This document shows, piece after piece, positions 2,098-64,000 of a DNA stretch of 64,000 nucleotides. Both the position numbers and the translations under genes were made by a program. This stretch comes from an uncultured bacterium (GTDB taxonomy: Bacteria; Oederibacteriota; PGYV01; Palsa-1178), in contig CALAOR010000023.1 in the NCBI GenBank assembly GCA_937889595.1, positions 6,614 through 70,613 on the forward strand, written 5' to 3'. Positions within the stretch are counted from its first letter, which is position 1, and each line of letters opens with the position of its first letter. Under the pieces are notes generated by a model. The model saw nothing but the letters and a program-made list of their open reading frames with translations. It was not told where the DNA came from and searched no databases.

Positions 2098-4707
2098 TTA
2101 AGCCTTCCCGAATTTCTTGACATACAGTTTCTGCACAAAATATACCAGGAATAAGTACGCGGCAACCATGCCCTCGAGTATGATGAAATATTTTGCGGAC
2201 GGCCTCACAAAACCAAACCAGGAAGCGATCGGCAGAAAAGGCAGAATAATACCGGTTAGTATGATCGCAATAGAGGTAAATACCAGGAAACTGCTCGGCC
2301 TGCTTTCAAAAATCGGGATCTTGGTGGTCCTTATCACGTATATTACCACGGTCTGTGTGACCAGAGATTCCACGAACCATCCCGTGTGGAACAACTCGGG
2401 CGAAGCCTTAAAAACAAATATCATCACCGCGAATGTCATAAAGTCAAATATGGAACTCACAGGGCCTATGAAAAACATATAGTTCTGTATTGATTTTACG
2501 TTCCATGGTTTCGGGGTCTGTATGTAATCTTCGTCCACGTCGTCCGTCGGGATGGCGGTCTGGGATATATCGTACAGAAAGTTATTTATAAGTATCTGTA
2601 TGGGCGTCATGGGCAAAAAAGGCAGGAAAAGCGAGGCACCTGTCATGGAAAGCATGTTCCCGAAGTTAGAACTCGACGCCATTTTTATGTACTTGGTTAT
2701 GTTCGAGAATGTCCTTCTTCCTTCTATGACCCCGTCTTCCAGCACGGACAGCTTTTTTTCAAGCAGGATTATATCGGCTGATTCTTTGGCTATATCCACC
2801 GCGTTATTGACCGATATGCCAACGTCCGAGGCCTTTAAGGCAAGCGCGTCGTTTATGCCGTCGCCTAAGAACCCCACTATGTGCTTGTTCGCGTGGAGCG
2901 CGTGTATTATGCGTTCTTTCTGCATGGGTGATAATCTCGCGAAAACATTTGTAGTCTCAACCGCCGCCTGCAATGACACGTCATCGAGTTTTTCCACGGC
3001 CTCGCCGGTCATCATGCCCTTGACATCAAGCCCGACTTCGCCGCATATTTTTTTCGTGACCAGTTCATTGTCGCCCGTGAGCACCTTAACCTGGACGCCG
3101 TAATGTTTGAGCATTTTTATGGCTTTTTCAGTGCTTGCCTTGGGCGGGTCGAGGAACGCCACGTAACCCTCAAGGATAAGCTCTGCTTCGTCGTCCTTTG
3201 TGAACCCGTCTTTTTTGTCCGCAAAGTCCCTGTAGGCCAGGGCTAAAACCCTGAACCCGTCGGCTGATAAGCGCTCATACTCCTCTTTTAGGTCGGCAAG
3301 TATGAGATACTCCATATCCAGTGTGTCGCCTTCGAGCTCATACTTTGTGCAGCGCTTGAATATCTCCTCGGGCGCCCCTTTTGATATGAGCCGTGTTTTC
3401 CCGTCCATCTCGACCACCACGGACATTATCCTGCGCGAGAAATCAAAAGGCATTTCGTCTATTTTTTTGTAGTTTGTTATGTCAAAGCCTTCCTGTTTGT
3501 TGGCATATTTTAATATGGCGCGGTCAAGGATGTTCTTCAGGCCCGTCTGGTAATAACTGTTAAGACAGGCGTATTTCAATACGTCCTTGTCCTCATTTGT
3601 CATGACATCGCAGTACTTTTCCAGCACCACCTTGTCCATGGTAAGCGTGCCTGTCTTATCCGTGCAGAGTATGTCCATGGCCCCGAAGTTCTGTATGGAA
3701 TTAAGCCGTTTTACTATGACCTTTTTTTTGGCCATTTGTATGGCGCCTTTGGAAAGGTTTATGGTGATTATCAGGGGCAGCATCTCGGGGGTTAATCCCA
3801 CGGCGACGGCAAGGGAGAAAAGGAGCGATTCGATGAGACTTTTTTTGAAAAACCAGTTTATTAAAAATATCGCTATGACCATCACGACCATGACCCTTAT
3901 CATTACCCAGGTGAACTGGGTCACCCCCTTGTCAAAACTTGTCTGTACCTGCATGGTCGCGAGCCTCTTGGAGAGTTCGCCGAACTGGGTATACAAGCCT
4001 GTTTTTACCACAACGCCTATGCCGGTCCCGCTGACGACCGATGAACCCATAAAAGCTATATTGGTCATCTCGGTTATTGAACCCGGCTTTTTGCCAAGGG
4101 GTTTCGAGGTTTTTTCAAGCGGCATTGACTCGCCGGTTAAAGTTGCCTGGTTCAAGAAAAGATCCTTGCAGGAGATTATGCGCAGGTCCGCTGGTATCAT
4201 GTCGCCCGCAAAAAGGTCGACCACATCGCCGGGCACGATCTCGCGTATGTTGATCTCCTTCGGCTTGCCGTTGCGGTAAACCGTGGTGGTTGTCTTGACC
4301 ATTTCCATGAGTTTTTCGACTTCGCGGCCCGAGCGGTATTCCTGGAAATAACCCAGGAACACGCTTAATACGATCATGCCAAGCACAAGCACGGCGCTTA
4401 TCATTTCCCCGAAAAACAGCGAGAATCCCCCTATGATAAAAAGGACTATGACAAGCGGGTTAAAGAACTTGACCAGTATCTGGGCCGCGATACCGAGCTC
4501 TTTCTTGCGCGCGGGTTCGTTATATCCGTATTCGTGAAGCCTGTCTTTTGCTTCCTTGTCAGTCAGGCCCTTGTCGGAAGTCTCGAGTTTTGTAAATATT
4601 GCGTTTGACTCGCACTCGGAACAGTCAAAATCGTATACTTGGGGTTTCGCGCTGGAAGTAAAACGCTCCTCTGCCTGCTTTGTTTTTACATTTTTTAACA
4701 CACCCAT
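2098..4707 (-). CDS. mgtA: Magnesium-translocating P-type ATPase
   Basis: TGES, PEMLP, DKTGTLT phosphorylation motif, GDGIND, SSNFGN (MgtA-type). Confidence 0.93.
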   Translation of the reverse strand: MGVLKNVKTKQAEERFTSSAKPQVYDFDCSECESNAIFTKLETSDKGLTDKEAKDRLHEYGYNEPARKKELGIAAQILVKFFNPLVIVLFIIGGFSLFFGEMISAVLVLGMIVLSVFLGYFQEYRSGREVEKLMEMVKTTTTVYRNGKPKEINIREIVPGDVVDLFAGDMIPADLRIISCKDLFLNQATLTGESMPLEKTSKPLGKKPGSITEMTNIAFMGSSVVSGTGIGVVVKTGLYTQFGELSKRLATMQVQTSFDKGVTQFTWVMIRVMVVMVIAIFLINWFFKKSLIESLLFSLAVAVGLTPEMLPLIITINLSKGAIQMAKKKVIVKRLNSIQNFGAMDILCTDKTGTLTMDKVVLEKYCDVMTNEDKDVLKYACLNSYYQTGLKNILDRAILKYANKQEGFDITNYKKIDEMPFDFSRRIMSVVVEMDGKTRLISKGAPEEIFKRCTKYELEGDTLDMEYLILADLKEEYERLSADGFRVLALAYRDFADKKDGFTKDDEAELILEGYVAFLDPPKASTEKAIKMLKHYGVQVKVLTGDNELVTKKICGEVGLDVKGMMTGEAVEKLDDVSLQAAVETTNVFARLSPMQKERIIHALHANKHIVGFLGDGINDALALKASDVGISVNNAVDIAKESADIILLEKKLSVLEDGVIEGRRTFSNITKYIKMASSSNFGNMLSMTGASLFLPFLPMTPIQILINNFLYDISQTAIPTDDVDEDYIQTPKPWNVKSIQNYMFFIGPVSSIFDFMTFAVMIFVFKASPELFHTGWFVESLVTQTVVIYVIRTTKIPIFESRPSSFLVFTSIAIILTGIILPFLPIASWFGFVRPSAKYFIILEGMVAAYLFLVYFVQKLYVKKFGKA

Positions 4708-6703: not shown

Positions 6704-6738
6704 TAATTAGTCATTTGTAATTTGTAATTAGTAATTAT
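6704..6738. repeat. Heptamer tandem repeat (TAATTWG-like)
   Basis: taattag tcatttg taatttg taattag taattat; related arrays at 47665-47691 and 53020-53038. Confidence 0.7.
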
Positions 6739-42666: not shown

Positions 42667-42841
42667 GATACTGTCGGAAAACCCTATAAAACCATGAAAT
42701 TCTTACTCGCTGCCGGGGCAAACAATTTTTTCATATGGCCTGTGCGCTACTAAAACCCTATATAATACAGGCGCACAATCCATATGAAAAAATTGTTTGC
42801 CCCGGCAGCGACCTATCATAAAGGTCTTTTCCGACAGTCTC
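42667..42841. mobile_element. MITE, 175-bp copy containing an inserted palindrome
   Basis: GATACTGTCGGAAAA / TTTTCCGACAGTCTC termini; flanking direct repeat ATATT (42662-66, 42842-46). Confidence 0.85.
42707..42811. repeat. 105-bp palindrome with perfect 32-bp arms
   Basis: TCGCTGCCGGGGCAAACAATTTTTTCATATGG and its exact reverse complement at 42780-42811; inner TGTGCGC/GCGCACA stem. Confidence 0.9.
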
Positions 42842-42844
42842 ATA

Positions 42845-44026
42845 TTATTTCAAAACTCCTATTTCCCTGTGTTTTGCCGCTATATCGTTGGCCAGCCTGT
42901 CAAGTTCCTTAAACTCGGCTTCCTTAGGCGACCCTTTTGATATTACCGGCGCAAGAACCTCTGCTTTAAAGTTAGACAGGCCCGCCTTTATGACTTCGCT
43001 TGCGCGCTCGCCCCAGCTGAAAGAAGTGATGAAGGTGACAAATTTTGTCTTTGGCCTTAACGCATTCGCTATATACACCAGGTTCGCGGCAACGGGATGC
43101 AGCCCTGCAAGCACGGTGGCCCCCCCTATGATGACTGTCGCCGAATCTATGAGAGCCATGGCTATTTCGCCCAGGTCGGAAACAGGTATATCAAAATAAT
43201 TTACTGTTATTCCTTTTTCTTCAAGCGCGTCCCTTAGATACTCGGCCATTTTCTTCGTGCTGTCGTGCATGGAAACATACGCGAGGGTAACCTCGTTTTT
43301 TACGTCATCAGTTGACCATTCTTTATACGCGTTGATGATGCCCTGCGGGTTTAAATGAATATAACCGTGCGAAGGGGCTATGATCTTTATGCCGAACTTT
43401 TCGATTTTTTGGATATTAGTACGCACGTTATTCCTGAAAGGGGACATGATCTCGGCAAAATACCTCTTTGCGGGCATGTAAAAATGTTCGCCTGCCAGGA
43501 TGTCGGCGGGAGAGAAATGTGAACCAAAAAAATCGCAGGAAAAAAGTATGCCGTCTTCCTTAAGGTACGTAACCATGGTTTCAGGCCAGTGTACCCATGG
43601 GGTCATGGAAAATTCAAGCGTTTTACCCCCGAGGTCAAGCGTGTCGTTGTCCTTGATTATCATAAGCTTATCGGAGGATACAAGGGAAAAATCATTAAGC
43701 ATATTGGCGCACTTTTCATTTGTGACAACCTTTGCACCCGGATACGCGTGCAGTATATATGGTATGGAACCCGTATGGTCCTGCTCGGCATGGTTGGATA
43801 TCACATAGTCGATTTTTTCCACTTTAAGCCTTTTTAAATTGTTAAACAGCTGTTCCCTGACCAGGGGGTCCACAGTATCTATGAGCGCTGTTTTAGAGCT
43901 TCCAATGACAAGATATGAATTGTACGTTGTCCCGTCCGGAAGCGGCACTAACTCGTCAAAAACCCTCCGCTCGGGATGTTTTGCGCCCACGGAATAAACA
44001 TTCTCAGCAAGTTTCTTGGTCGACAT
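42845..44026 (-). CDS. fprA: Flavodiiron protein (A-type flavoprotein)
   Basis: HAEQDH, HWPET, CDFFG, PSHG; flavodoxin domain. Confidence 0.92.
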   Translation of the reverse strand: MSTKKLAENVYSVGAKHPERRVFDELVPLPDGTTYNSYLVIGSSKTALIDTVDPLVREQLFNNLKRLKVEKIDYVISNHAEQDHTGSIPYILHAYPGAKVVTNEKCANMLNDFSLVSSDKLMIIKDNDTLDLGGKTLEFSMTPWVHWPETMVTYLKEDGILFSCDFFGSHFSPADILAGEHFYMPAKRYFAEIMSPFRNNVRTNIQKIEKFGIKIIAPSHGYIHLNPQGIINAYKEWSTDDVKNEVTLAYVSMHDSTKKMAEYLRDALEEKGITVNYFDIPVSDLGEIAMALIDSATVIIGGATVLAGLHPVAANLVYIANALRPKTKFVTFITSFSWGERASEVIKAGLSNFKAEVLAPVISKGSPKEAEFKELDRLANDIAAKHREIGVLK

Positions 44027-45151: not shown

Positions 45152-45214
45152 GCCGTTCCCTCCTGAATTCGATTTGTTATTTCAAAAAAATCCCGGCATT
45201 TTCTTTTATTTTAA

Positions 45215-45262
45215 CAATTTTATAATGAATGCAATTTTATAATGACGCTGCAAATTTGTCAA
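45215..45262 (-). promoter_or_regulatory. Ferritin-operon promoter with a 14-bp direct-repeat operator
   Basis: TTGACA-N17-TAAAAT; CAATTTTATAATGA at 45215-28 and 45232-45. Confidence 0.65.
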
Positions 45263-45515
45263 TATTCAATAATTGCAAACATTACAATGCCGGAATATTT
45301 CCATATATGCTGATAATACATAGTGATTTGGATTTTTGTTATATCTTTTTTCCACTTTATATTGACTTTTTTTCAGGAGAAAAACAGGTTGTGGATTTCA
45401 GGGAAATTGGATACTGCGGCTTTAAATATCTATTAGTCATTACCCGACTTTGGAAAATTTACCTGAACAGATAAAGTCCAACAATCCCAATCCTCGTTAT
45501 ATCATTTTGAAATGA

Positions 45516-45543
45516 AATACCCCGCAGCAAGCTGCGGGGTATT
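45516..45543. repeat. REP-like palindrome (may also terminate the TA operon)
   Basis: AATACCCCGCAGC-AA-GCTGCGGGGTATT, a perfect 13-bp inverted repeat. Confidence 0.75.
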
Positions 45544-45557
45544 GTACCTGCGTATTA

Positions 45558-45866
45558 TTAAACCGCGATAAAAATATCAGTTTTTGCTTTGAGCCCCATG
45601 GCAATTTTGCCGATTGTGTCAACTGTGATATTCTGTTCTCCGTTTTCAATTCTTGATACTTCCCCTTGGCTCATGTGAAGCAATTTTGCCAATCCCTTTT
45701 GAGAAATATGCCTTTTCTTTCTTGCTATCTGAACCTGCGCTCCAATCTTGTTTCTTAACTCCTCAACTTTATACTCTGCGTTAAACTCCTTATTTTTCAT
45801 CTGAGTTTCAAGCCAATTATCAAAATATACCGCCTTTTTACCATGGGTCATTGTTTTAGTTTTCAT
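45558..45866 (-). CDS. XRE-family HTH antitoxin (HigA-like)
   Basis: ISQKGLAKLLHMSQGEVSRIENG; ATGA overlap with the upstream toxin gene. Confidence 0.85.
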   Translation of the reverse strand: MKTKTMTHGKKAVYFDNWLETQMKNKEFNAEYKVEELRNKIGAQVQIARKKRHISQKGLAKLLHMSQGEVSRIENGEQNITVDTIGKIAMGLKAKTDIFIAV

Positions 45867-46225
45867 AATATTATCTCTCCTTTTTGAATTCTGTTGTTAA
45901 AATCATTCCTGCGCGCTTTTGCTGTTTCTATATCATTTCTATCTAGATCATTACGTTTCTTTTTGAAAGCACTCAGTAAAACTATCTTATTTTTGATACA
46001 AAAATAGTACAAAATTCTGAAATTATTTGGACTAAATTCTACTCTCATTTCATAAATGCCGTCTTCTATCTTTGCTGCTTTTGGCCTGTGCAATTGAAAA
46101 CCTAATGTTTCCAATTCACTAATAGACCTGGCAATTTTTGCCCTTGTTTTTATGTCCTGTTCCATTAAAAAATCTTCAACATAACTTTGACCGCTTTTTG
46201 TCGTGTAAAAAATTGCTTTAAACAT
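45863..46225 (-). CDS. RelE/HigB (Gp49-like) toxin
   Basis: IFY..G..V.DFL, GIYEMR, FRILY, LLSAFKKK; toxin-first order. Confidence 0.85.
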   Translation of the reverse strand: MFKAIFYTTKSGQSYVEDFLMEQDIKTRAKIARSISELETLGFQLHRPKAAKIEDGIYEMRVEFSPNNFRILYYFCIKNKIVLLSAFKKKRNDLDRNDIETAKARRNDFNNRIQKGEIIL

Positions 46226-46248
46226 CTATCCTCCACCCTTCTATTTAG

Positions 46249-46277
46249 ATTATATACCATATATGGTATACTGTCAA
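46249..46277 (-). promoter_or_regulatory. Consensus sigma70 promoter of the TA operon with a palindromic operator
   Basis: TTGACA-N17-TATAAT; perfect 18-bp palindrome TATACCATATATGGTATA (46253-70). Confidence 0.85.
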
Positions 46278-46377
46278 GTTCTTGTTGGCTGATATCATTT
46301 AATTACTCGACTTTGGCAAATTTGCCTGAACGGATAAAATGCAGTAATCCTAACCCTCATTATATTATTTTGTACTC

Positions 46378-46423
46378 AAAAAAAATGCCCTGCGGGCTTT
46401 GCCTTCGGCAGCCACGCAGGGCA
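46378..46423 (-). terminator. Hairpin/terminator downstream of the VR
   Basis: TGCCCTGCG..TGCC-GAA-GGCA..CGCAGGGCA followed by T8. Confidence 0.75.
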
Positions 46424-46491
46424 AAAATATACACACAAACGAACACACAAAAAAAACATTTCAAAATGTAAAAAGGTAAAAATCCAAAATG

Positions 46492-47568
46492 TTAATACGT
46501 CCTCGCAAAGCGGAAGCCGCTGTAGTAGAACGAACTATACGGGATGTCGTTGAAGCGGATGCCCACCTTCAGGTAGTACGCGTAGTCGTAGGAGCTACCG
46601 CCCCGCAACACGCGTCTGGAGCCGCTTGCAGGTCCTCTATAGTCTGTAGATATACCTGGATAGGTTCCATACCAATCCCAACACCACTCCGCTACATTGC
46701 CCGACATATCATAAAGACCCAGCGCATTTGCTGTTTTTCCGCCTACTGCATGTGGACTACTACAATTTGCATTATACCACGCTACAAGTCCGGTTGCCGT
46801 TGCGTTGGTATAGTCCGCTGTCGCGCCGCTGGCATAGTTATACGGCGTCCAGCTTGACCCGTTTATATAACTTGTCGCGTACTGGTATTCACCTTCTGAA
46901 GGCAATCTGTATCCGTTATTTGTCCATGCACAAACCGCGTTATCACAAGCTGTCGCATTGGTTGAATCCTTTATCACTGCGCTTAAATAGGTATAGCAGG
47001 GTGTCAACCCGGTCTTTTCACTATATGCATTACACCACACTATAACATCCCGCCAGCTCACATATGTTACCGGCTGATATTTTGCAGTGGTCGGTGCGGC
47101 ACTACCTACTGTTTCGTAAATTCCCTCTGCGCCTACATTTTGAAAAGTATAACCGTTGGCAACAGCCCAATGATACACTATATACCACAAATTATACGTC
47201 ACTTGATATTTTCCCATTTTAAAAGCAGATATTGTATGGCTGAAACCACCTGTTCCACTATCATCTGTCTGCGTAAATGTGCCGCCGGGAACTGATACAA
47301 TAACCGAAGAATCAAATAAGGTTTCCGCAGCCACAGCGGTCTGAACTACGGCCACCACTACTGCGGTTTGCGTTGCGTTCACCACTACTGCGGTTTGCGT
47401 TGCCATCGCTACTACAGTTTGCGTGGAAGCGGTTATCGCCGTCTGCGTAGAATTGATGGTTGGAGTACTGGTGGCGCCCGGCCCCGAAGGTTGCGATTTC
47501 TTACAACCGATTGCGGCAAATACTGCAACGACACACAAAACGATAAGTACTGATATTTTTGTTTTCAT
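46492..47568 (-). CDS. Lipoprotein with FGE-sulfatase (CLec-fold) domain; probable DGR target protein
   Basis: Start re-called at MKTKIS (GGGAGG RBS); lipobox AIGC; TQTAV repeats; YRLPSEGE, GLYDMSGNVAEW, RVLRGGS..GFRFAR. Confidence 0.88.
   Translation of the reverse strand: MKTKISVLIVLCVVAVFAAIGCKKSQPSGPGATSTPTINSTQTAITASTQTVVAMATQTAVVVNATQTAVVVAVVQTAVAAETLFDSSVIVSVPGGTFTQTDDSGTGGFSHTISAFKMGKYQVTYNLWYIVYHWAVANGYTFQNVGAEGIYETVGSAAPTTAKYQPVTYVSWRDVIVWCNAYSEKTGLTPCYTYLSAVIKDSTNATACDNAVCAWTNNGYRLPSEGEYQYATSYINGSSWTPYNYASGATADYTNATATGLVAWYNANCSSPHAVGGKTANALGLYDMSGNVAEWCWDWYGTYPGISTDYRGPASGSRRVLRGGSSYDYAYYLKVGIRFNDIPYSSFYYSGFRFARTY
46495..46626 (-). other. DGR-type variable region (VR)
   Basis: C-terminal ~43 codons with NNC codons (TAC, GAC, TTC, ATC, AGC, AAC) at positions where DGR templates carry AAC; followed by T-rich heptamer repeats. 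Confidence 0.7.
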
Positions 47569-47599
47569 TTGAAACCTCCCTTTAGATTCGGTTGAGTTG

Positions 47600-47627
47600 A
47601 TTATAACCCTCCCCATTATTTTGTAAA
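47600..47627 (-). promoter_or_regulatory. Sigma70-like promoter inside the cassette
   Basis: TTTACA-N16-TATAAT about 30 nt upstream of the ATG. Confidence 0.55.
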
Positions 47628-47693
47628 GTTTTTACATTTGCAGAATAAATTTTTTAAAGTCGAGTAATTAGTCATTTGTAATTAGTAATTTAC

Positions 47694-48857
47694 TTAGACA
47701 AGCCCTTCAGGATTTAAAACAGTCCCGCCTGTTTTCATGACTTCCTGCAATTTCTGATAGTCCACCGTATCGCCGAGAAGAATTGCTCCGCTGAGTTTCC
47801 CATCTTTTATGAATACCCGCTTGAAAACCCCGCCTTCGTGTTTTGTAAATACCCTGGTGTCAGCGTCTGCCTCGATATTTCCCATGGAGCCCAGGTCTAT
47901 GCCCGCGACTTTGAGCTTTGCGGATAAAACGCTCCCTTTATATTCTGTTTTTTCCCCAGCCGCGTTCAAACCCGCCGCAGTGCCCTGTTCTTTCGCGGCC
48001 GGCCATATGCCATATACCATGCCGTTGTACTCGGTTACGTCGCCGCAGGCATAGATGCCGGGTATATTTGTTTCCATAAAATTATTCACTTTTATCCCCT
48101 TATCCGCCGCGATATCCGTTCCTTCTATGATCTTCAGGTTACTCCGGATTCCGCTGGAAAACAGTATGAGTCCGGCCGTAAGGTTTGTGCCGTCCTTGAA
48201 ATTCACGGTCAATTCATTTCCCGCGGCTGAAATTGTTTGCGCTTGTTTAGGAAGCATGAATTTAAGGCCTTTTGTCTCGAGCATGGCCCGCAGGATCGCT
48301 GCGCCGTCCATGTCAAGTTGCCGCGGGAGCAGTCTGTCAAAAAACTCGACTATCGTTGTCTGCAATCCCCTCGTGACAAGCGATACAGCGGCTTCTATGC
48401 CCAAAAGCCCTCCGCCGATAACTGCCGCTGTTTTTTTATCTTTTGAATAATTAATGACGGCGTTGGCGTCGTCTATGGTGCGCAGCGTAAAAACCCCGGG
48501 ATTTTTCGAACCTTCAACCGGAGGTATGAAGGAATAAGCCCCGGCCGCTATTATTAACTTGTCATAGTTTTCTTTTGCCCCGTTTTCCAGGATAACTGCC
48601 CTGCCACCCGCATCGATTGATCTTACATTAACCGGGTATATAAGATTGATCCCGTTTATATCGTAAAATTCCTTTTTCTTTATTATTATCTGTTCCTGCG
48701 TCACCCTGCCTGACAAAAGTTCAATGACACGCGGCCTTGAATAATGCGTGTACTTCTCGTCGCTTATCATGGTTACCGCTATTGAAGGGTCTTTTCTTCT
48801 GATACCCTCGGCCGCCGCTATTGCAGCCGCGCCGTTACCTATGATCACTATTTTCAT
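47694..48857 (-). CDS. FAD/NAD(P)H-dependent oxidoreductase (NADH:rubredoxin oxidoreductase-like)
   Basis: GNGAA, YSRP, GGGLLG.E, IYACGD, KLKVAG. Confidence 0.85.
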   Translation of the reverse strand: MKIVIIGNGAAAIAAAEGIRRKDPSIAVTMISDEKYTHYSRPRVIELLSGRVTQEQIIIKKKEFYDINGINLIYPVNVRSIDAGGRAVILENGAKENYDKLIIAAGAYSFIPPVEGSKNPGVFTLRTIDDANAVINYSKDKKTAAVIGGGLLGIEAAVSLVTRGLQTTIVEFFDRLLPRQLDMDGAAILRAMLETKGLKFMLPKQAQTISAAGNELTVNFKDGTNLTAGLILFSSGIRSNLKIIEGTDIAADKGIKVNNFMETNIPGIYACGDVTEYNGMVYGIWPAAKEQGTAAGLNAAGEKTEYKGSVLSAKLKVAGIDLGSMGNIEADADTRVFTKHEGGVFKRVFIKDGKLSGAILLGDTVDYQKLQEVMKTGGTVLNPEGLV

Positions 48858-52669: not shown

Positions 52670-53018
52670 TCAAATGGAAAATGAGAGGTTCAGACGGTTC
52701 CTGCCTTTTATAAGGGATAAGACCGCCAGAATGATGTTAACTATGGCCGCTGCAGCTATCAGGTAATATATCATAGGTAAATTTTACGCTTTGGGGGGTA
52801 AAAGGTCAAACGGTTTTTAAGACTATGTGTACCCTTGACTTGTTGATTATAACCCCTGCCTTGCAGAGTACGCCGAACATACCGCCTATTATCACGTCAT
52901 AAAAACCGCCCGCTAATAACCTGAAATAAAAAGGCTTGGCCGGTATGGTCATGCCAAACTCGATTTCCGGCATCAGGTCATAAAGGCCGAATGACCATGA
53001 GGAGTCAAAATCGGCTTG
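52670..53018 (-). pseudogene. Two probable gene remnants
   Basis: 34-aa MIYYLIAAAAIVNIILAVLSLIKGRNRLNLSFSI* (52774-52670, like the start of a 7TM sensor domain) and a 70-codon open fragment (53018-52806). Confidence 0.3.
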
Positions 53019-53043
53019 GTAATTAGTAATTTGAATTAAAGTC

Positions 53044-54337
53044 CTACTTCACAACCGCCGCCTTCATAACCCCTGACGCGTGTTCCCCGCGGCTTGTTGA
53101 TGCCTCAATCCTGTATATGAAAACACCGGATGCAACGGGCTTTACTGCCCTGTTCTTTCCATCCCAATAAATGCTGTTATATCCTGCTTTACCGGCTATA
53201 TCTTCCTGCCACCTTACAATCTCCCCTGATACGTCAAATATTTTTATCTTAACATCCGCATCCACTGAAAGTTTATAAACTATCTGGGTGTCGCGGATAA
53301 AAGGATTGGGGAAATTGCCCTTTAACTCCAGTATAAGAGGAAGCGGAGTTGCGGTAAAAGTCGGGGTCATGGTCTGCGTTGCCGTAATGGTGGGCGTGAT
53401 TGTCGCGGTATAAGTGTCGGTAAAAGTCTGCGTTACGGTAAAGGTCGGCGTGTCCGTGAAAGTTGGTGTCACTGTGAACGTCGGTGTTACAGACGGTGTG
53501 GCGGAAAAAGTCGATGTTCCCGTAAATGTCGGAGTGGACGTATTGGTCCAGGTCACAGTGGGAGTGTCGGAAAAAGTCATGGTTCCCGTAAATGTCGGAG
53601 TGGACGTAATGGACGGTGTTATAGTGAACGTAGAACTGAAAGTATACGTCGGTGTAATTGTCGGCGATATAGTGACGGTTTCCGTTATAGTATGCGTCGC
53701 GGTGATAGTGCCTGTCGGTGTCATGGTTGAAGTCGGGGCGACTGTCATGGTAAAAGTCGGGGTGGTTAAAAGCGCCTGTCTGTTCAGCCCGTAATAAGTC
53801 ACAAACGAAATACTCTGCCCGGGGTTGAGTGGGAATCCGGGCGAGGTTTCGTTCCCGTTGCACCACCATAAAACCACGGCGCTGTCATTCCCGATCACAC
53901 CGGCCGGAGACAAGGACCACTGGCCCGGTGCGGCAACCCCCACCCAGTTCGCTATCTCCATTATATCCGGTTCCGTCGCAGGCTCATCATATGGATTGTT
54001 TTTTGTGTACCCTCTTCCCACAAGCGTCGGGGTGCCGGGCGGCGGAATATCATAATCCCACCAGTCCGGCTTTATCTGGTTTAACGATTTATAATAAACT
54101 GTATTTGTTGTGATAAAGTTAAAGCCGTTGTCCACAGAAATATTTGCACCGTCGTTGGTGAGCACTTGCGTATCCAGTTCCAGCCTGAGAGCTACAGTAC
54201 TTGTAACGGCTGTTGTGTTTTTCAGGGTATATTTGATCTTGGCCGTATCCTGGGGTGAGCCGGCAGGATTATTTACAATTTCCCAGTCTGAACTGACATC
54301 TATACCCGCATAATCCAATTTGGCGTTTACGGTCAAA
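53044..54337 (-). pseudogene. 5'-truncated Thr-rich surface protein with FlgD-Ig/T9SS-like C-terminal domain
   Basis: No signal peptide or own start; fused in-frame to a DUF1016 fragment; CTD homologous to that of the 10895 gene. Confidence 0.6.
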
Positions 54338-54574
54338 ACCTTCCCCATAAAACAAAACCTCGCGTCAAGCTCAAGCATAAACCACTTTACCCTCTCCACC
54401 AGCCGTTTTTCAAGCTTCCTTTCAAGAACAGATTTAGTGAATACCAAGAAAACCCAGATTATAAACACTCTTCATGGACTCATCAACCTGTTTCGCCAGA
54501 TGCATAGGCATAGCCTTTGCATAATTGTTGGATTTTTTATCCTTTTTTACGTGCGTATAAGCGTCGGTGGTCAT
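54338..54574 (-). pseudogene. Fragment of a DUF1016/YhcG PD-(D/E)XK nuclease gene
   Basis: After a GAGGAGG RBS: ...LAKQVDESMKSVYNLGFLGI, frameshift, then SVLERKLEKRLVERVKWFMLELDARFCFMGK, resembling the YhcG LE..L...I..FLLELG.GF.FVG motif. Confidence 0.6.
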
Positions 54575-54811
54575 CTATGCCTCCTCAAAATGAATTAGCC
54601 TAGATTTTACCACCTTTTGAACAGATAATTATAATTGTCGTTTTCGGGAGTTTTAATTGTCATCAATCAGACATAGGCCACAAACAAAATAGGTTCGTTG
54701 ATAACCCCAGATTTCCTGCGCAGGTTCCTTACCGAAATGGTCTTTGGATTTTATTTACATATAATCATTATGTTGTTGTATTTGGTTATATGACTACGAG
54801 TTTACTCTTGC

Positions 54812-57800
54812 CTAAGGCGTCTGCGTTGGCACAGGCGTACAGGAACCGCAATTTTCGTTATACCGCCACAATGTCATATCATAACCATTTGTAACTCCAA
54901 ATATCACTAAGCCGCCCGTTGTCACGATCTTGCCGTAATTCGCCCCGCTGCCCGGATAATTATTGTAAACTGCGGACTTCATCGAATGATCCATCGCACC
55001 CGCCGCGGTTGTATAAGACACTATATTGGTTCCATTGCCAAATGACAAATCCGGCGTGCCGTCCGCGAAGTACCTAGCCATGAACATTATGGGCAGATAT
55101 GACGCATCGAACGCGTACCCGGTTGCCACCACCCTGCCGCATGTATCTATCAATATCCCGGCTCCGTCTTCATATGATCCGTTCGAATATATCTTGGGAG
55201 AGACCCATGACTGGTTGCCGTTTTGATCAAATTTGTATATCACCATGTCATCGTCAACGCCATTACTCATGCTTCCTGCTACGTAAATATAATCATTTTT
55301 GTCGATTGCAACGGCATTACCGTAAGCATATCCCGAATTGTTTACGGTTTTTGGCCATCCGGATTGCAGCGTCCCCGTTTCGCTAAGTTTCCATAAAGCA
55401 ATTTCGTAACCGGAGCCGCCATATATATAACCCGCAATATATATCTTCCCAGTCGAATCCACAGCTATGCCGCCCGGCGTAGGATAGGTGGACGACACGA
55501 CTACTACCACGCCATTTGTTCCAAAAGTTGTGTCAACCGACATCGTAACCAGGTCATACCTGATGACAAATAAACTTGTGCCGCCCCCGCTGATATTGCT
55601 TGTCCCGGTAATCAGGATTTTTTCATGCCCGTCTGAAGACGCCGTGTAGGAAAATATTCCCGTAACCACGTCTGTGTTATTGGCGTGGTCGTTTATGAGG
55701 TCATCCATGTTCAACACCAGCGTGCCCCCGGTACCGGGGACATACTTCCAGAGCGCCAGATTTGCACTATAATTCGGGTATGCCGGCCATATGATTCCCA
55801 CGACCCATATATTTCCCGACAGATCTTTTGTAATATCAACACCCCTGCTGCTGTCGCATGTATATGGCACAGTCACATTGCCGGAATTATCGGTTTTCCA
55901 TAACGCCATCTTGTTCATCGGATATTGACCGCTTATGGCTGTGGAACCGGTTACATATATGTTATTATCACTTCCTATGACAACACTGCTCCCTTTGTCC
56001 TGCGTGTAGCCTGCCCCGCCCGCGCCGTCATTGTTCACATAGCCATTTGACCCAAATCCGGCGTCAAGCGAAACACAATTGGTAACCATTGTAGGGGTGA
56101 TAGTCGGGGTCGGTAGAACGTTTATAGTCAAGTCTAAATTATATTGTTCAATAATATCACTTGAATTAAAAGGAGTTACTAAAACATAATAAACACCTGC
56201 ATCTAAAGTCACAGATATTTTGGAATAGTAATTAGCACCACCATCATCGTCAGTTATTATTGGATCACCCGACATATTATTACCGGAATAAAGCGTTAGT
56301 ACCGTATCATCATCACCTGTTCCCGAAGTTTCCAGTACAACGTCTGAACGGTAAGTTAATTCAAATTTAACCCAGTCATGATCACCGGCGGGCATTATAC
56401 TATGCACCTGGCGCGTGCCGCCTGTAATAGTACTGGCGTTCAAATATGAACCGTCATCCTCATAAGCATCAAGTACAAGAGTAGGTGTGGTTGTAAATGT
56501 CGGGGTTGATGTCAGGAAAGGTGTTGTTGTGTATGTGCATGTCGGTGATATAATAAGTGTATTTGTGTACGTGGGTGTAGCAGTATCCACAAATGTAGCC
56601 GAATCGGTTATAGTAGATGAATATACAGGTGTTTGCGTCAGAGTTAGTGTTTCTGTTCCCGTATTTGTTAAAGTTGGAGTAATAGATGGAGTAATATCAA
56701 AAAACTCCACCTTGTCAACCCATCCACTGTCATCAAGATCGCTGTCGCTTTCATCTTTGGCATATTCCCATCTTAAAGTATGTAATCCGGGCTTAAGCAC
56801 AAATTGCATATTTTCCCAGTCAATTGAACCGCTTATTTCACCCAGATTTTCATCATCAACATAAAATAATAAGTAGTCATATGCTGCTTCCGACGCAACC
56901 TTCCAATAGAAACTCAATATTTTGTAATTATTAAAATTTACGGTTGTTTGCATAAATGTATTATCGTTATCTCCGATTCTCCCGCTTACAGCCGAAGTCC
57001 CGCCAAAATATGCTGTAAATGTGTCAACTGTCCATTCCATACTTCCACCTGTATACCAGTCCGAGCCGGTATATTCAACCGCCGCGCCAAGTCCATATGC
57101 CGCAGTTGAAGTCTGTGTAACTGTAAAAGTAGGTGTTATTGTAGTTGTAAAAGTATTTGTGACTGTAAACGAATAAGTTTGTGTCGAAGAATAAGTAGCA
57201 GTAAGGGTAACGGATACCGTGGATGTGAGTGTCCTACTTGGTGTAATCGTCGGCGTGAAAGATATGAATATTGTTTTTGTGTATGTTGGAGTATAGGTTA
57301 GTGAAATCGTAAATGTTTTTGTTATAGTTGTTGTTGGTGTAGACGTTTGAGTCCGTGTTCTGGTTGGAGACGCCGTAAAAGTTTTTGTCTTTGTCCCCGT
57401 TGGCGTGATAGTGGAAGTCCTGGTTCGCGTAGGTGTCACTGTCATTGACTTCGTCCTTGAACCGGTTGGTGTTATGGTGGGAGTTTTCGTCTTTGTCCAC
57501 GTCGGTGTAATTGAAGACGTACGCGTAAAGGTGTTGGTAACAGTTCTCGAAAGTGTTGGTGTGCAGGTAGATGTTGACTGCGGTGACTTCGTGATTGTTG
57601 AGGTTGCCGTAAATGTCTGTGTAAAAGTTCCGGTATTGGTAATTGTGCTTGTTCTGGTTGCAGTCAAAGTTAGTGTACTTGTATATGTTGAAGATAAAGT
57701 ATGCGTATTTGTAGCAGTTAAAGTTTGTGTAAGACTTGATGTTGTGGTATAAGACGCAGTTGATGACAAAGTAGCGGTAAATGTAAGAGTCGGAGTGAGC

Positions 57801-60596: not shown

Positions 60597-63500
60597 TGAA
60601 ACCTCCCAAATTCGGCATTTTGAAATAACAATTCCGGATAATACGAATAAAAATCAAAATAACCATCGAAAGCACCTGCACCACGCGTAGGATAACTTGT
60701 CAAATTATCAAAAATATTGAAAACATACTCATAAGCCTGATAATTAATGGCTGAAGAATCGACATTATTATAATAATCGTAAATCAAATCTTCAATCTGG
60801 TAATTATATTTTGACTTAAAATTACTCGGTAATCCAGAAGTTCTATTTATATAGATATCATTGACTTTGCTTGCTCCAAGATTATATGAAGCTGCTGCAA
60901 TCTTAAATCTTTCAAGAACAGAAAGAGCTATCGTCGCCTTATATAACTTGTCAGGGAAATAAGTAAAAGTTCTATTATACAAAACGGTTAAATATCTGGC
61001 AACGAATTCAAGATTCTTTTTAGACTCATAGGCTCCGTTTATGCCTCCCAAAAAGGTAGGAAAAGTAACGCCATCTCCCAATGGCGGCGCTACTTCACCA
61101 AAACATATCGACGTAATCTGCCCATATCCTTTGGCGTGTGTATACGAGAACGCGATTTCGCCAACGCTTCTCATGTGTATCATGCATGATTCCTGCTGAA
61201 CCAACGCCATACAAAATGCCGTAAATGAATTTCCGTCAAAATCATAATAGGCATGATCAACGAACTCGGTTGGTATGCCTGGAGGCCAATCCGCTGGTCT
61301 GATGTTCGTTTCATCATATCCAAAATTATAAAAATTATGATATAAACTGTTTGCAGTATCATTATTACTATATGGAATTAAATTATCGTATAATCTTGCT
61401 TTGGTATATATCCATTGTAATAGTTTGTTATCTGCTATATACTCCCTGTCTGAGTTTGCGGGTAATAACGGATTGTCCGGTTGTAAGTTGGCATACTTAA
61501 CCATCGTTGAATCAGTAGAGCTATATAAGTTGTTTAGGTCCAGAGCGTACGCAGTATTCAATGTAACCATAGCCTGCGACAACTGGCTACCCCACCAACC
61601 GTCCAATTGCATTCTTATATACGGGTAAATTATAGTGCCGTAATATGAAGCTATGTTCTGGTTGGTGGTCATAATAATATTCACCATCCTTTGAAGCTGC
61701 TGCACCGCATATGAACCAACTGCACCCGCAGAATAACCATTAGTATCATAATACAAAATATTGTCTGTTGAGATTCCGTTGTTTGCAGGATCAAATACCA
61801 GTTCATTATTATCACTCATATAGATACGATTTATTGTGCATGGGTAATATATATTACCGTCTGACGCGCGAAATCCTCCATAATAACCAGCGGCGCCTCC
61901 GGCAGTAGCTACACTTGGTTCAATATTTGCCGCCGTAGAACAAGGAATTACAGTTGCAAAAGGAAAAACAGTTGTATCTTGTGACCTGGCTCCTCCGTCA
62001 TATGACACTGCCATTTTTGAATTATTTACACTGGATATTTTGCTGGGTGAATTACTATCCTGATCCTTCCATGGATAACCGTTAACATTAAATTGCAGAG
62101 TGTAATCCCACGGAAGAACTCGTGTGCCTAAATTATTTGTAAAATTCCAGGTAAAACTTTGACCATTCGCAACCGTCACACCAAAAGTTGTGTTATACAC
62201 CGCATTGCTATTTTTATCTTTCACAACAATATTCACAGTGCCTGGCTGAATCATATCATAGCCCAAACGTACATACTTGCTGGAATTGGAATAGATATTT
62301 TCTACATTATATGTCCCTGGTGTTGGGGTAACTGTAAATGTTATAGTAATTGTTGATGTTGGAGTATTTGTTGGGGAAATAAATGTAGGTGTTTTCGTAT
62401 TTGTTGCCGTGTAAGTAAATGTAATTGTAACTGTTCTTGTATAGGTAAAAGTCGGCGATATACTATATGTGGGTGAAATTGTTTGGGTCAGGGTCATTGT
62501 TCTGGTCGGCGTCACGGTAAAAGTGGGCGTAATCGAAAATGTTTTGGTTATTGTCGGCGATGCTGTGTTTGTTGGTGAAAATGAAAATGTTGGAGTTACA
62601 GTAGGTGTGGAAGTCTTTGTCGCCGTAGCTGTAAATGTAGGCGTTGAAGTCGCAGTCCAACACGGCCCGCCACCGATGGCATATAGTGATGTGTAACCCT
62701 GAACATATAGAGTTCCATCATGAGAAAGTGCTGCGCCAAAATTAAAAGTTCCAGTTTGAATACGCCACATTACATTTCCGGCGGCATCAACAGCGTGTAT
62801 ATTACCATCTGACGACACATATACATTACCAATTGCATCAACCGCATTACAAACAGAATATTTCAAATCGGCACCATACTGACTTCCAGGTAATACTGTA
62901 TCCCATGCAAGTGCCGGAGTCGATGTTCCATTTGGAACTAGTTTATCGAGCCGTAGAACTCCGCCTTGTGCGCAATAAACAAAGTACACACCTCCGTCGG
63001 GAGATAAAGCAATATGTTTGTTTACATTTGTTATGCTTGGCACCATGTAGCTCCACTGTTGAATCCCAAATTTACTTAAACATTTAACCACTGTGCCATT
63101 ATTATAATCAAAATTTCCAATATAAATATTTTCTGATGGATCTATAGAAATTCCATTATTGCCCGCACTTCCATAATTCACTGTCCAATTTGGCGTTGTA
63201 CTTGGCGGTGTATAACTGTATAAAATCCCACTATCGCTTATAAAATACACATTACCGCTTTTAGCTACCGCACCTTCGGCATGTCCTGTATCAGGCGCAA
63301 CTGACCAAACTACAGAACCGTTGCCATCAACCTCTTCAGCTTGGACACTTCCACCAGTATACCCTCTGAACATATATATATTGCCGTCCTGTACAAGCGA
63401 GCCAACATTTGGTTGTTGTTGTGCATAACCATCATCAGCATAATTCTTTACAGGTGTTCCATTTTGCGAATTATAGAACTGTAATAAATAATGCGGTTGA

Positions 63501-64000
63501 AGATTAGTTCTGTGATAAAATTTTAAAACTTCATTATTATTCATGACAACCGCTGACCGAGGTTCGGCATCTGATGGATCAACAGGATTGTTCCATAATG
63601 GATTTCCAAACGCGTCATATGCAAATATAGCATTGGTACTTCCGGAAAATACTCTACCCATTCCATCAACAACACCTCCACCAAAACCATACTGAACAGA
63701 TGCCTGCCAGCGTATGTCCGCTGTTGTCGGCCCAATAGCGGAACCAATACAGCTGTACTGTGCGTCTTTTCCGGCCATAGGCCAACCCGGCCCCTGTAAT
63801 GGAGAACACGGAGGCGTTTGTGTTACCGTGGGTGTGACTGTGCTTGTAGGCGTTATTGTGTGGGTGAAAGTAATTGTACCCGTTTTTGTGACTGTGAACG
63901 TATTCGTAAATGTGGGCGAAACTGTATATGTCAAAGTCACAGTTGGCGCGTTACTTTGACCACACCAAGAAGGAAAATGGGGGCCATATGCCGACTTATC
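60593..64000 (-). CDS. Giant surface protein (start outside the window): Thr-rich stalks, PQQ-like propeller, FlgD-like Ig, C-terminal SLT/lysozyme-like domain
   Basis: Frame stays open to the window end; ALVQQES, AKGYGQI, NLEFVARYL, AAASYNLG, YVFNIF motifs. Confidence 0.8.
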   Translation of the reverse strand, partial: DKSAYGPHFPSWCGQSNAPTVTLTYTVSPTFTNTFTVTKTGTITFTHTITPTSTVTPTVTQTPPCSPLQGPGWPMAGKDAQYSCIGSAIGPTTADIRWQASVQYGFGGGVVDGMGRVFSGSTNAIFAYDAFGNPLWNNPVDPSDAEPRSAVVMNNNEVLKFYHRTNLQPHYLLQFYNSQNGTPVKNYADDGYAQQQPNVGSLVQDGNIYMFRGYTGGSVQAEEVDGNGSVVWSVAPDTGHAEGAVAKSGNVYFISDSGILYSYTPPSTTPNWTVNYGSAGNNGISIDPSENIYIGNFDYNNGTVVKCLSKFGIQQWSYMVPSITNVNKHIALSPDGGVYFVYCAQGGVLRLDKLVPNGTSTPALAWDTVLPGSQYGADLKYSVCNAVDAIGNVYVSSDGNIHAVDAAGNVMWRIQTGTFNFGAALSHDGTLYVQGYTSLYAIGGGPCWTATSTPTFTATATKTSTPTVTPTFSFSPTNTASPTITKTFSITPTFTVTPTRTMTLTQTISPTYSISPTFTYTRTVTITFTYTATNTKTPTFISPTNTPTSTITITFTVTPTPGTYNVENIYSNSSKYVRLGYDMIQPGTVNIVVKDKNSNAVYNTTFGVTVANGQSFTWNFTNNLGTRVLPWDYTLQFNVNGYPWKDQDSNSPSKISSVNNSKMAVSYDGGARSQDTTVFPFATVIPCSTAANIEPSVATAGGAAGYYGGFRASDGNIYYPCTINRIYMSDNNELVFDPANNGISTDNILYYDTNGYSAGAVGSYAVQQLQRMVNIIMTTNQNIASYYGTIIYPYIRMQLDGWWGSQLSQAMVTLNTAYALDLNNLYSSTDSTMVKYANLQPDNPLLPANSDREYIADNKLLQWIYTKARLYDNLIPYSNNDTANSLYHNFYNFGYDETNIRPADWPPGIPTEFVDHAYYDFDGNSFTAFCMALVQQESCMIHMRSVGEIAFSYTHAKGYGQITSICFGEVAPPLGDGVTFPTFLGGINGAYESKKNLEFVARYLTVLYNRTFTYFPDKLYKATIALSVLERFKIAAASYNLGASKVNDIYINRTSGLPSNFKSKYNYQIEDLIYDYYNNVDSSAINYQAYEYVFNIFDNLTSYPTRGAGAFDGYFDFYSYYPELLFQNAEFGRFQ

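Follow-up and report, generated by a model that had tools for sequence, protein, structure and literature searches.

Mobile insertion cassettes (MICs) are one or more passenger genes lying between the inverted repeats of an insertion sequence (IS) or transposon, without a transposase, thought to be moved by the cognate transposase and delimited by target duplications (PMC4337579). Examples are TnXax1-derived MICs with transcription activator-like effector (TALE) genes in Xanthomonas, and MIC231 of Bacillus cereus. The IS701 family is described as comprising elements of 1400-1550 bp with a 4-bp target duplication in almost all members (PMC2266710). For the diversity-generating retroelement (DGR) of Treponema denticola, multiple target genes per genome are reported (PMC4891356); the words transposase, transposon, mobile, inverted repeat and insertion sequence do not occur in that paper. 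Excerpts of work on cyanobacteria (PMC7517822), Thiohalocapsa PB-PSB1 (PMC10907252) and DiGReF (PMC3521204) describe remote paralogues that bear a variable region (VR) and are diversified in trans, as well as transposases, MITE-like repeats (MITE, miniature inverted-repeat transposable element) and degraded reverse transcriptases (RTs) near DGR loci, and MITE-like repeats that take the place of DGR parts; in the same excerpts the authors suggest that transposons may carry DGR parts as cargo or disperse variable-protein genes. The subject of this report is a 1359-bp cassette (positions 46306-47664) within a 64,000-nt stretch of DNA, the window (G000:C23:6614-70613). It holds one 1080-nt gene for a VR-bearing lipoprotein, with its own promoter, between terminal inverted repeats (TIRs). 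The genome that contains the window, G000, measures 3.42 Mb in 93 contigs, and its assembly is 98.96% complete.

Descent from a transposon that carries a whole DGR

Alignment establishes, at the level of sequence, that this cassette descends from a DGR-bearing IS701-family transposon by two internal deletions. The connection to a transposase is seen in the related genome G020: there the end motif directly adjoins the gene of a 422-aa DDE transposase (Pfam DDE_5, DDE_Tnp_1) at its stop codon; G006, G007 and G015 contain fragments of such transposase-bearing copies. A scan of metagenomes returned 10 loci, five of which (L044-L048) have a full-length transposase. L048 is a simple 1345-bp IS, a single DDE transposase between two TIRs, with TTCATTA directly repeated on both sides. 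L044 and L045 have the same TIRs around a 4648-bp element that reads, in order, left TIR, template repeat (TR), RT, Avd, an HRDC protein, a hairpin, a TvpA-like target gene with its VR, a promoter, a divergent transposase and the right TIR. The target of L044 is a 308-aa FGE lipoprotein with a VR, and its TR overlaps the 3' end of the RT. Its transposase passes the IS701 model NF033540 (185.6 bits, cut-off 150) and also matches DDE_5/DDE_Tnp_1, its Avd passes NF033474 (97.2 bits, cut-off 80), its RT matches RVT_1 at 68.2 bits, and its accessory protein matches HRDC. The autonomous IS with shared ends that a preliminary description of the window had proposed to look for is this IS701-family element, found in relatives and in metagenomes.

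The parent also looks recently active. The TR and VR of L044 differ mainly at adenines of the TR (28/35 mismatches), and over the 4648 nt shared by L044 and L045 all 32 differing columns fall within the VR. The right flanks of the two copies are different; on the left there is nothing to compare, the L045 contig beginning with its TIR. Such a pattern is to be expected of a transposon that has moved recently with an active DGR on board. G020 has a homologous whole DGR (C181, RT 73% identical at the protein level) on a contig that stops before either TIR. In the G020 and L047-type transposase copies, whose contigs end 160-230 nt upstream, no left TIR was found in that stretch. On G015:C1 (L028, 2457-3027) a decayed DGR lies beside a transposon left end, with an intact HRDC gene 95% identical to that of L044; of its Avd only residues 1-31 are left, and of its RT only the final 45. 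A Candidatus Omnitrophota metagenome-assembled genome has at a contig end a transposase fragment 97% identical to that of L044 over 185 residues (L041), which in another phylum would be either inter-phylum transfer or a binning error. G010 has RVT_1 matches with identical scores at six sites on C9, C10 and C11, in open reading frames (ORFs) of 472-566 aa, one of them about 600 bp from an FGE paralogue; the set looks like a multi-copy group II intron.

The window cassette is colinear with L044 in five blocks (Table 1), and exactly two gene blocks are absent from it, HRDC-Avd-RT-TR (~2.1 kb) and the transposase (~1.3 kb), of which some 35 nt of the 3' end persist. One deletion junction lies directly after the U-run that follows the hairpin, and the other, where the transposase was lost, at about 47630. 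Both recur among the sister copies in G000: homology resumes at element position 1379 in C23 (the window contig), C56, C81 and C77b, and element position ~2500 is joined to ~4610 in C23 and C56. C77b keeps the first 20 codons of the HRDC start, a 20-aa remnant that marks it as a different derivative of the transposon. The same cassette architecture is present in another genus (G007:C15). The preliminary description had proposed DGR targets served by a remote RT and TR; the unit did not arise independently and then recruit such a DGR, but came about by deletion from a transposon with the whole DGR inside it.

Table 1. Positions of the cassette, its parts and its sister copies in G000 (window coordinates unless a contig is named)
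Feature	Position	Strand	Remark
Left copy, probable target-site duplication TAATTA	46300-46305	.	same 6 nt abut both ends
Left TIR CTCGACTTTGGCAAATTT	46306-46323	+	18-mer also ends L044, L045, L048 and cassettes in G000, G007, G006, G002
Left-end module	46306-46377	+	homologous to the full DGR transposon in its final ~60-75 nt at the RT/TR end, element positions 4610-4665
Left-end block shared with L044	46294-46349		L044 614-671, 84%
Target-gene 3' untranslated stretch: T-rich repeats, GC-rich hairpin, U8 run	46378-46491	-	conserved with L044; hairpin and U8 run -36.5 kcal/mol, z -3.76
Hairpin and gene block shared with L044	46378-47295		L044 2783-3665, contiguous homology
Target gene, 359-aa lipoprotein	46492-47571	-	PF03781, 2.4e-31
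VR	46499-46627	-	77% match to L044 TR, 869-997
Ribosome-binding site and promoter	47572-47632	-	homologous to target-gene promoter of the full transposon; 47562-47632 matches L044 3815-3902
Right-end module: transposase 3' remnant and degenerate right TIR	47630-47664	-	47630-47669 matches L044 5239-5278
Right copy, probable target-site duplication TAATTA	47665-47670	.	same 6 nt at both ends
Heptamer array GTAATTA GTCATTT GTAATTA GTAATTT	47664-47691	+	four units, adjoins right end
Solo left (RT-side) transposon end	45437-45517	+	TIR-like CCCGACTTTGGAAAATTT starts at 45443
Window cassette	46306-47664		1359 bp, one gene
C56 cassette			1521 bp, one gene
C32 cassette	C32:89104-91638		2535 bp, two tandem target genes in one TIR pair
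C81 cassette	C81:69983-72783		2801 bp, one 760-aa gene, long N-terminal region joined to VR domain

The target gene and its dispersed family

Every component named in the preliminary description (a perfect 15-bp inverted repeat, promoter, ribosome-binding site, lipoprotein gene ending in a VR, T-rich repeats, hairpin and heptamer array) lies where it had placed it. The sole long ORF between the repeats is the lipoprotein, which combines an FGE-sulfatase domain with a TQTAV-type repeat linker and a lipobox, AIGC, read from the sequence; there is no transposase ORF, and the ends are IS701 TIRs, in agreement with its view of the unit as a transposase-less element bounded by IS-type repeats. Among solved structures the best match is 2y3c, the Treponema denticola variable protein 1 (TvpA; 2.4e-27). 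The gene starts at an ATG (47571) behind a GGGAGG ribosome-binding site and a sigma-70-like promoter on the minus strand (TTTACA-16-TATAAT, 47627-47600, 11/12 positions). At its other end the hairpin and U8 run may serve as an intrinsic terminator and are a candidate DGR target-recognition hairpin.

Measured against the TR of L044, which belongs to another organism, the window VR is changed at 22/43 adenine sites and at 11/88 other sites, and an NNC codon pattern runs through the VRs of all 13 FGE-domain paralogues in G000. In two of these, C88b and C81, the 375 nt preceding the VR are 99.2% identical, and within the VR 17/35 adenine sites and 13/81 other sites are different; a 15-nt indel inflates the second figure. 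Such adenine-biased divergence between near-identical copies shows that rewriting continued once the copies had separated, and hence in trans. By these signatures the window gene is shown to be a DGR target whose VR underwent adenine-specific diversification in the past. The VR 3' end, GGCTTCCGCTTTGCGAGGAC, differs from that of L044 by 1 nt, and the hairpin and T-rich stretch are conserved with L044; judged by sequence, the parts that homing in trans would need are conserved. The terminator hairpin of two paralogues (C88:134980-135070 and C81:72640-72700) is interrupted by a further short repeat that is rich in GC, CTTCCGCTTTCGCTTTTGAGGGACGAAGC....

The 15-mer TAATTACTCGACTTT lies at 46300-46314 with its exact reverse complement at 47656-47670, and the arms, when extended, are 88% complementary over 24 nt. 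The 15-mer matches 3 times in the window when up to 2 mismatches are allowed (0.14 expected), a count that 0/100 shuffles reach. Genome-wide there are 4 exact matches (a random 15-mer would give about 0.006 by my own arithmetic), 7 at up to 1 mismatch and 15 at up to 2, and 10 of these 15 share a longer motif by context. The TIR core CTCGACTTTGGCAAATT / ACTCGACTTTGGCAAATTT at up to 3 mismatches has 12 sites in G000 and 1 for the reversed control, bearing out the expectation that the repeat recurs elsewhere, and an independent 16-mer search recovers C9 and the right end of C32. As a motif the core is also present in related Spirochaetia genomes: among 41 genomes searched at up to 2 mismatches, G007 has 12 sites (8 at contig ends), G006 and G002 have 2 each, and G015, G020, G040 and G009 have 1 each.

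Four inverted pairs in G000 are complete, each enclosing one or more paralogues of the lipoprotein gene. Other inverted pairs with different cargo had been foreseen, and the C56, C32 and C81 cassettes, with one paralogue, two in tandem and a 760-aa fusion, are such pairs. One-ended copies lie at C88, at C9 (where the contig end cuts it), at C77 and at 45437 in the window, C88b and C9 having only a left end and C77b only a right end. The solo end at 45437 is 860 bp left of the cassette, downstream of a toxin-antitoxin pair, and is 79-86% identical over ~79 nt to the left ends at C56, C88, C81 and C9 and to 46302-46380. Of the 13 paralogues, 8 genes at 7 loci have shared non-coding transposon sequence and 5 have coding similarity only. 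Homology between copies ends at the repeat on both sides. Descent from a DGR transposon explains how a genome without an RT comes to hold a 13-member TvpA-like lipoprotein family.

Movement, decay and the rival explanations

The reading that I consider probable is that the window unit is a non-autonomous, MIC-type derivative of an IS701-family unit transposon carrying a whole DGR, formed by a single deletion history and afterwards moved and rewritten in trans. Two internal deletions removed HRDC-Avd-RT-TR and the transposase, so that the two TIRs now enclose no more than the hairpin and the VR-bearing target gene with its promoter; the deletions would have happened once, because the junction coordinates are common to several copies. 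Transposase supplied in trans from the full element would then have carried the cassette form to several sites, and the RT, Avd and TR of the full element would have rewritten the VRs of the dispersed cassettes. Single deletion, helper-driven movement and rewriting in trans, taken jointly, have about an even chance or slightly better. With neither helper found in G000 the cassette is now most likely an orphan: its surface lipoprotein would still be expressed, the variable ligand-binding site of that protein would be frozen, and one of the cassette's TIRs is degenerate.

Insertion at this locus is supported by gene order in relatives. The ferritin and rubredoxin-reductase-like oxidoreductase (NROR) genes that flank the block are 237 nt apart in the same-genus genome G001, against 2435 nt in the window (45266-47700), and 120-700 bp apart on one contig in G003, G004 and G011; the block of solo end, toxin-antitoxin pair and cassette is therefore an insertion relative to those genomes. 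Of the empty sites proposed in the preliminary description, adjacency of the flanking genes without the block was found, and a base-exact empty site was not obtainable. Contigs of four public runs (one study, Logan; depth 2-6) bridge both cassette junctions, at 45833-46419 and 46247-46405 on the left and 47645-48038 on the right; no joint in them skips the cassette, and the joints listed lie inside the gene.

The ends bear on the mode of insertion. Across genomes the conserved end starts with CTCGAC (CTCGACTTT...), at 46306 and 47664 in the window, and the base before it varies. The true TIR most likely starts there by this comparison, with the outer TAATTA as flank and target duplication, and the 15-bp repeat first described is probably a 6-bp target duplication plus 9 bp of TIR. 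This alternative had been raised in the preliminary description and is the better reading, the same 6 nt abutting both ends and comparable repeats occurring at other copies; TAATTA is palindromic and could alternatively belong to an extension of the TIR. The direct repeats are perfect (7/7) at C81 (TAAATTA) and L048, 6/7 at L044, 5/7 at C32, and 5/6 at both C56 and G007:C15. Mismatched pairs of left and right flanks never reach 7/7 (0/42), and 18/42 reach 5 or 6. Several transposon ends in G000 abut heptamer units, and at a paralogous unfilled site (C32:87520-87680) an array occupies the very point at which the C32 cassette starts, so that the array at 47664-47691 is the likely landing site of the window cassette; flanks in G007 are AT-rich and are not arrays.

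Several results weigh against the favoured reading. No RVT_1 match exists in the G000 assembly, the profiles of the Avd and IS701 families give 0 matches there, tblastn with the RT, Avd and transposase of L044 finds none, and no VR-like sequence that could be a TR occurs in window or genome outside the 13 paralogues. The earlier statements that the cassette is served by a remote RT/TR and mobilised in trans accordingly have no helper to refer to in this 99%-complete assembly, and present-day mobility or diversification in G000 is not shown. RVT_1 is likewise missing from all 8 genomes of the family (G000 included), one of them in 3 contigs; repeats are often lost from such assemblies, so the absence of RT and TR from G000 is not proven. 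The right TIR of the window copy (47647-47664, read inward CTCGACTTTAAAAAATTT) has 3/18 mismatches to the consensus CTCGACTTTGGCAAATTT. The window's 6-bp repeat scores 3/7 in the 7-bp register, the weak duplications carry little weight because all flanks resemble TTAATTA, and no register gives a consistent 4-bp repeat of the kind described for IS701; the two clean cases, L048 and C81, give 7 bp, which is atypical for that family. Intergenic DNA of G001 and G002 cannot be aligned beyond the ferritin promoter, hence the missing base-exact empty site. Finally, the closest paralogues, C23, C9, C88b and C81, are 91-99% identical over the 375 nt before the VR and yet differ in their 5' ends, C88b having none; nor was a 5' end found in the first 3 kb of C57, which may carry C9 on beyond its contig end. 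It is clear that copies have recombined or undergone gene conversion; this too has shaped the family, and it could have spread shared junctions as well.

In a rival account the copies are immobile fossils: full DGR transposons inserted independently and decayed in place, gene conversion spread the shared junctions and near-identical 3' halves, and the cassette form never transposed. The mosaic 5' ends within the closest paralogue group, the one-ended copies (C88b and C9 left only, C77b right only), the missing helper transposase, the degenerate TIR of the window copy and the differently decayed DGR of G015, with HRDC intact and Avd and RT mostly deleted, are all in keeping with it. I nevertheless regard it as unlikely, if the most serious competitor, since copies with just 71-78% identity between their coding parts have both junction coordinates in common, the same architecture appears in another genus (G007:C15), the transposase-less C81 has a perfect 7-bp duplication, and conversion tracts would need to end exactly at the TIRs at every locus.

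Two further accounts dispense with DDE transposition. Site-specific recombination at a palindromic site, integron-like or invertible, might be suggested by short palindromic versions with almost nothing between the arms (G040:C200, G002:C229) and by the head-to-tail order of solo end, toxin-antitoxin pair and cassette in the window. I think it very improbable: the same ends bound an IS with a DDE transposase and target duplications, the cassette has its own promoter, the short palindromic versions have no matching flanks, and among the ORFs inside the elements, as listed for L044 and the window, none is a recombinase. A regulatory palindrome (operator or looping site) or a mere chance match, with no bearing on mobility, would fit the position of the right arm ~30 nt upstream of the -35 hexamer and the perfect palindrome GGCAAATTTGCC in the left end. 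This is slighter still, being already contradicted by homology between copies that stops at the repeat on both sides, by transposase-bearing elements that end in the motif, by the 8 breaks of G007 contigs at the motif, and by shuffles that never reach the observed count (0/100).

Beyond the single cassette, it is conceivable, at somewhat less than an even chance, that an IS701-family transposon captured a complete DGR and buds off target-only cassettes in which its TIRs, the VR and the hairpin are retained, that its transposase spreads them while its RT, Avd and TR rewrite their VRs in trans, that AT-rich heptamer arrays are preferred landing sites, and that genomes without the master keep a frozen repertoire. 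If true, environmental Spirochaetia would possess a two-tier system, propagating itself, by which repertoires of hypervariable surface lipoproteins are built up at dispersed sites.

The heptamer arrays are widespread in their own right. G000 has 35 arrays of at least 3 heptamers (GTMATTW), in the window for example at 47664-47691, 6710-6737 and 53016-53040. Many are paired in inverted orientation around a 15-50-nt loop and form AT-rich intergenic palindromes of ~80-120 nt; arrays occur in G004 and G038 too. The idea that arrays are accumulated footprints of 7-bp insertions is not supported: G004 has arrays and yet a single 3-mismatch motif match, equal to the control, and the insertion flanks of G007 are AT-rich but without arrays. 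Nor do the loops of paired arrays look like TIR remnants, only C31 showing a stretch like GACTTTAAAT.

The surroundings of the cassette contain other features. To its left lies a Gp49/HTH toxin-antitoxin-like pair (45558-46225) and to its right the NROR gene (47694-48857). The Gp49-like/HTH pair (HigB/HigA-type; 45558-46290) has a perfect TTGACA-17-TATAAT promoter overlapping the palindrome TATACCATATATGGTATA, sits between solo end and cassette within the block absent from relatives, and may be cargo of a related cassette. The solo end is followed (45437-45546) by a hairpin, ATACCCCGCAG-CAAG-CTGCGGGGTAT, that is repeated at C88:145416-145453 (38/38 nt), with weaker copies on C75, C77 and C73 and in G002 and G020. 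An Rfam scan of 45200-47800 at E up to 1 gave no known RNA family, the sub-threshold hits being GABA3 (22.1 bits) and BSnc120 (19.6 bits). A sigma-54 promoter reading of TTGGCAAATTTGC was rejected by inspection, the GG-GC spacing being two short of the consensus. Farther off, the longest inverted repeat of the window (42707-42811; 41 nt, 95% complementary, 23-nt spacer) lies directly past the stop of a flavodiiron-like gene (42845-44026), and dense 6- and 12-nt periodic GTNNNN repeats at 53348-57730 and 62328-63895 (36 and 18 family members) suggest very repetitive minus-strand coding sequence.

Comparison with known systems

For the spread of DGRs and their remote targets, within a genome and from one genome to another, a concrete vehicle can here be named to the base: a single TIR pair, with target duplications, that encloses one DDE transposase and a complete DGR, evidently an active one; a series of deletions leads from it to target-only cassettes. 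Whether the transposase can move the cassettes, and whether the master RT and TR can diversify them in trans, are testable. There is also a warning for annotation: where the RT is missing, a gene that bears a VR can be the orphaned cargo of a transposon.

The preliminary description knew of no account of this combination, and part of that impression holds. Transposase-less cassettes bounded by IS ends are already described as MICs (PMC4337579). In the full-text literature searched, to which subscription journals and supplements did not belong, there is no DGR in a single TIR-bounded unit transposon and there are no target-only derivatives; no paper pairs a diversity-generating retroelement with IS701, and those that pair it with 'non-autonomous' are, by title and the start of the abstract, none of them on topic. 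What looks new against this literature is a unit transposon that packages a DGR and gives off cassettes with the target alone; MICs, IS701 and DGRs are known as kinds already, so no new category is needed.

Some known categories fit poorly. The cassette is not a MITE, being 1359 bp with a 1080-nt gene and promoter and not short and non-coding. It differs from an integron gene cassette in having its own promoter and the TIRs of a DDE transposon as ends (no attC search was made), and from a composite transposon in having only 18-nt TIRs with 35-75 nt of subterminal sequence on each side in place of complete IS copies.

Closest are the MICs, which it resembles in its passenger gene, its IS TIRs, the lack of a transposase of its own and a known cognate element (outside G000). 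The difference lies in the parent, an IS701-family element with an entire DGR, and in the passenger kept, a DGR target gene with VR and hairpin; the window cassette may depend on the parent both for movement and for diversification. The parent in turn resembles IS701 members in a transposase that passes NF033540 and in its simple TIR-bounded relative L048 (1345 bp), and departs from them in the 4648-bp length of the DGR-bearing form, with five passenger features. With the Treponema denticola DGR and TvpA (2y3c) it shares the bacterial class, a lipoprotein target, the FGE/C-type-lectin fold and a C-terminal VR, whereas in the present case transposon ends enclose both the DGR and its targets. 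The cyanobacterial, Thiohalocapsa and DiGReF cases, in the parts of those papers available (PMC7517822, PMC10907252, PMC3521204), rest on proximity or on IS repeats inside the loci. Here, by contrast, one DDE transposase and a complete DGR lie within one TIR pair with target duplications, accompanied by target-only derivatives that have the same TIRs.

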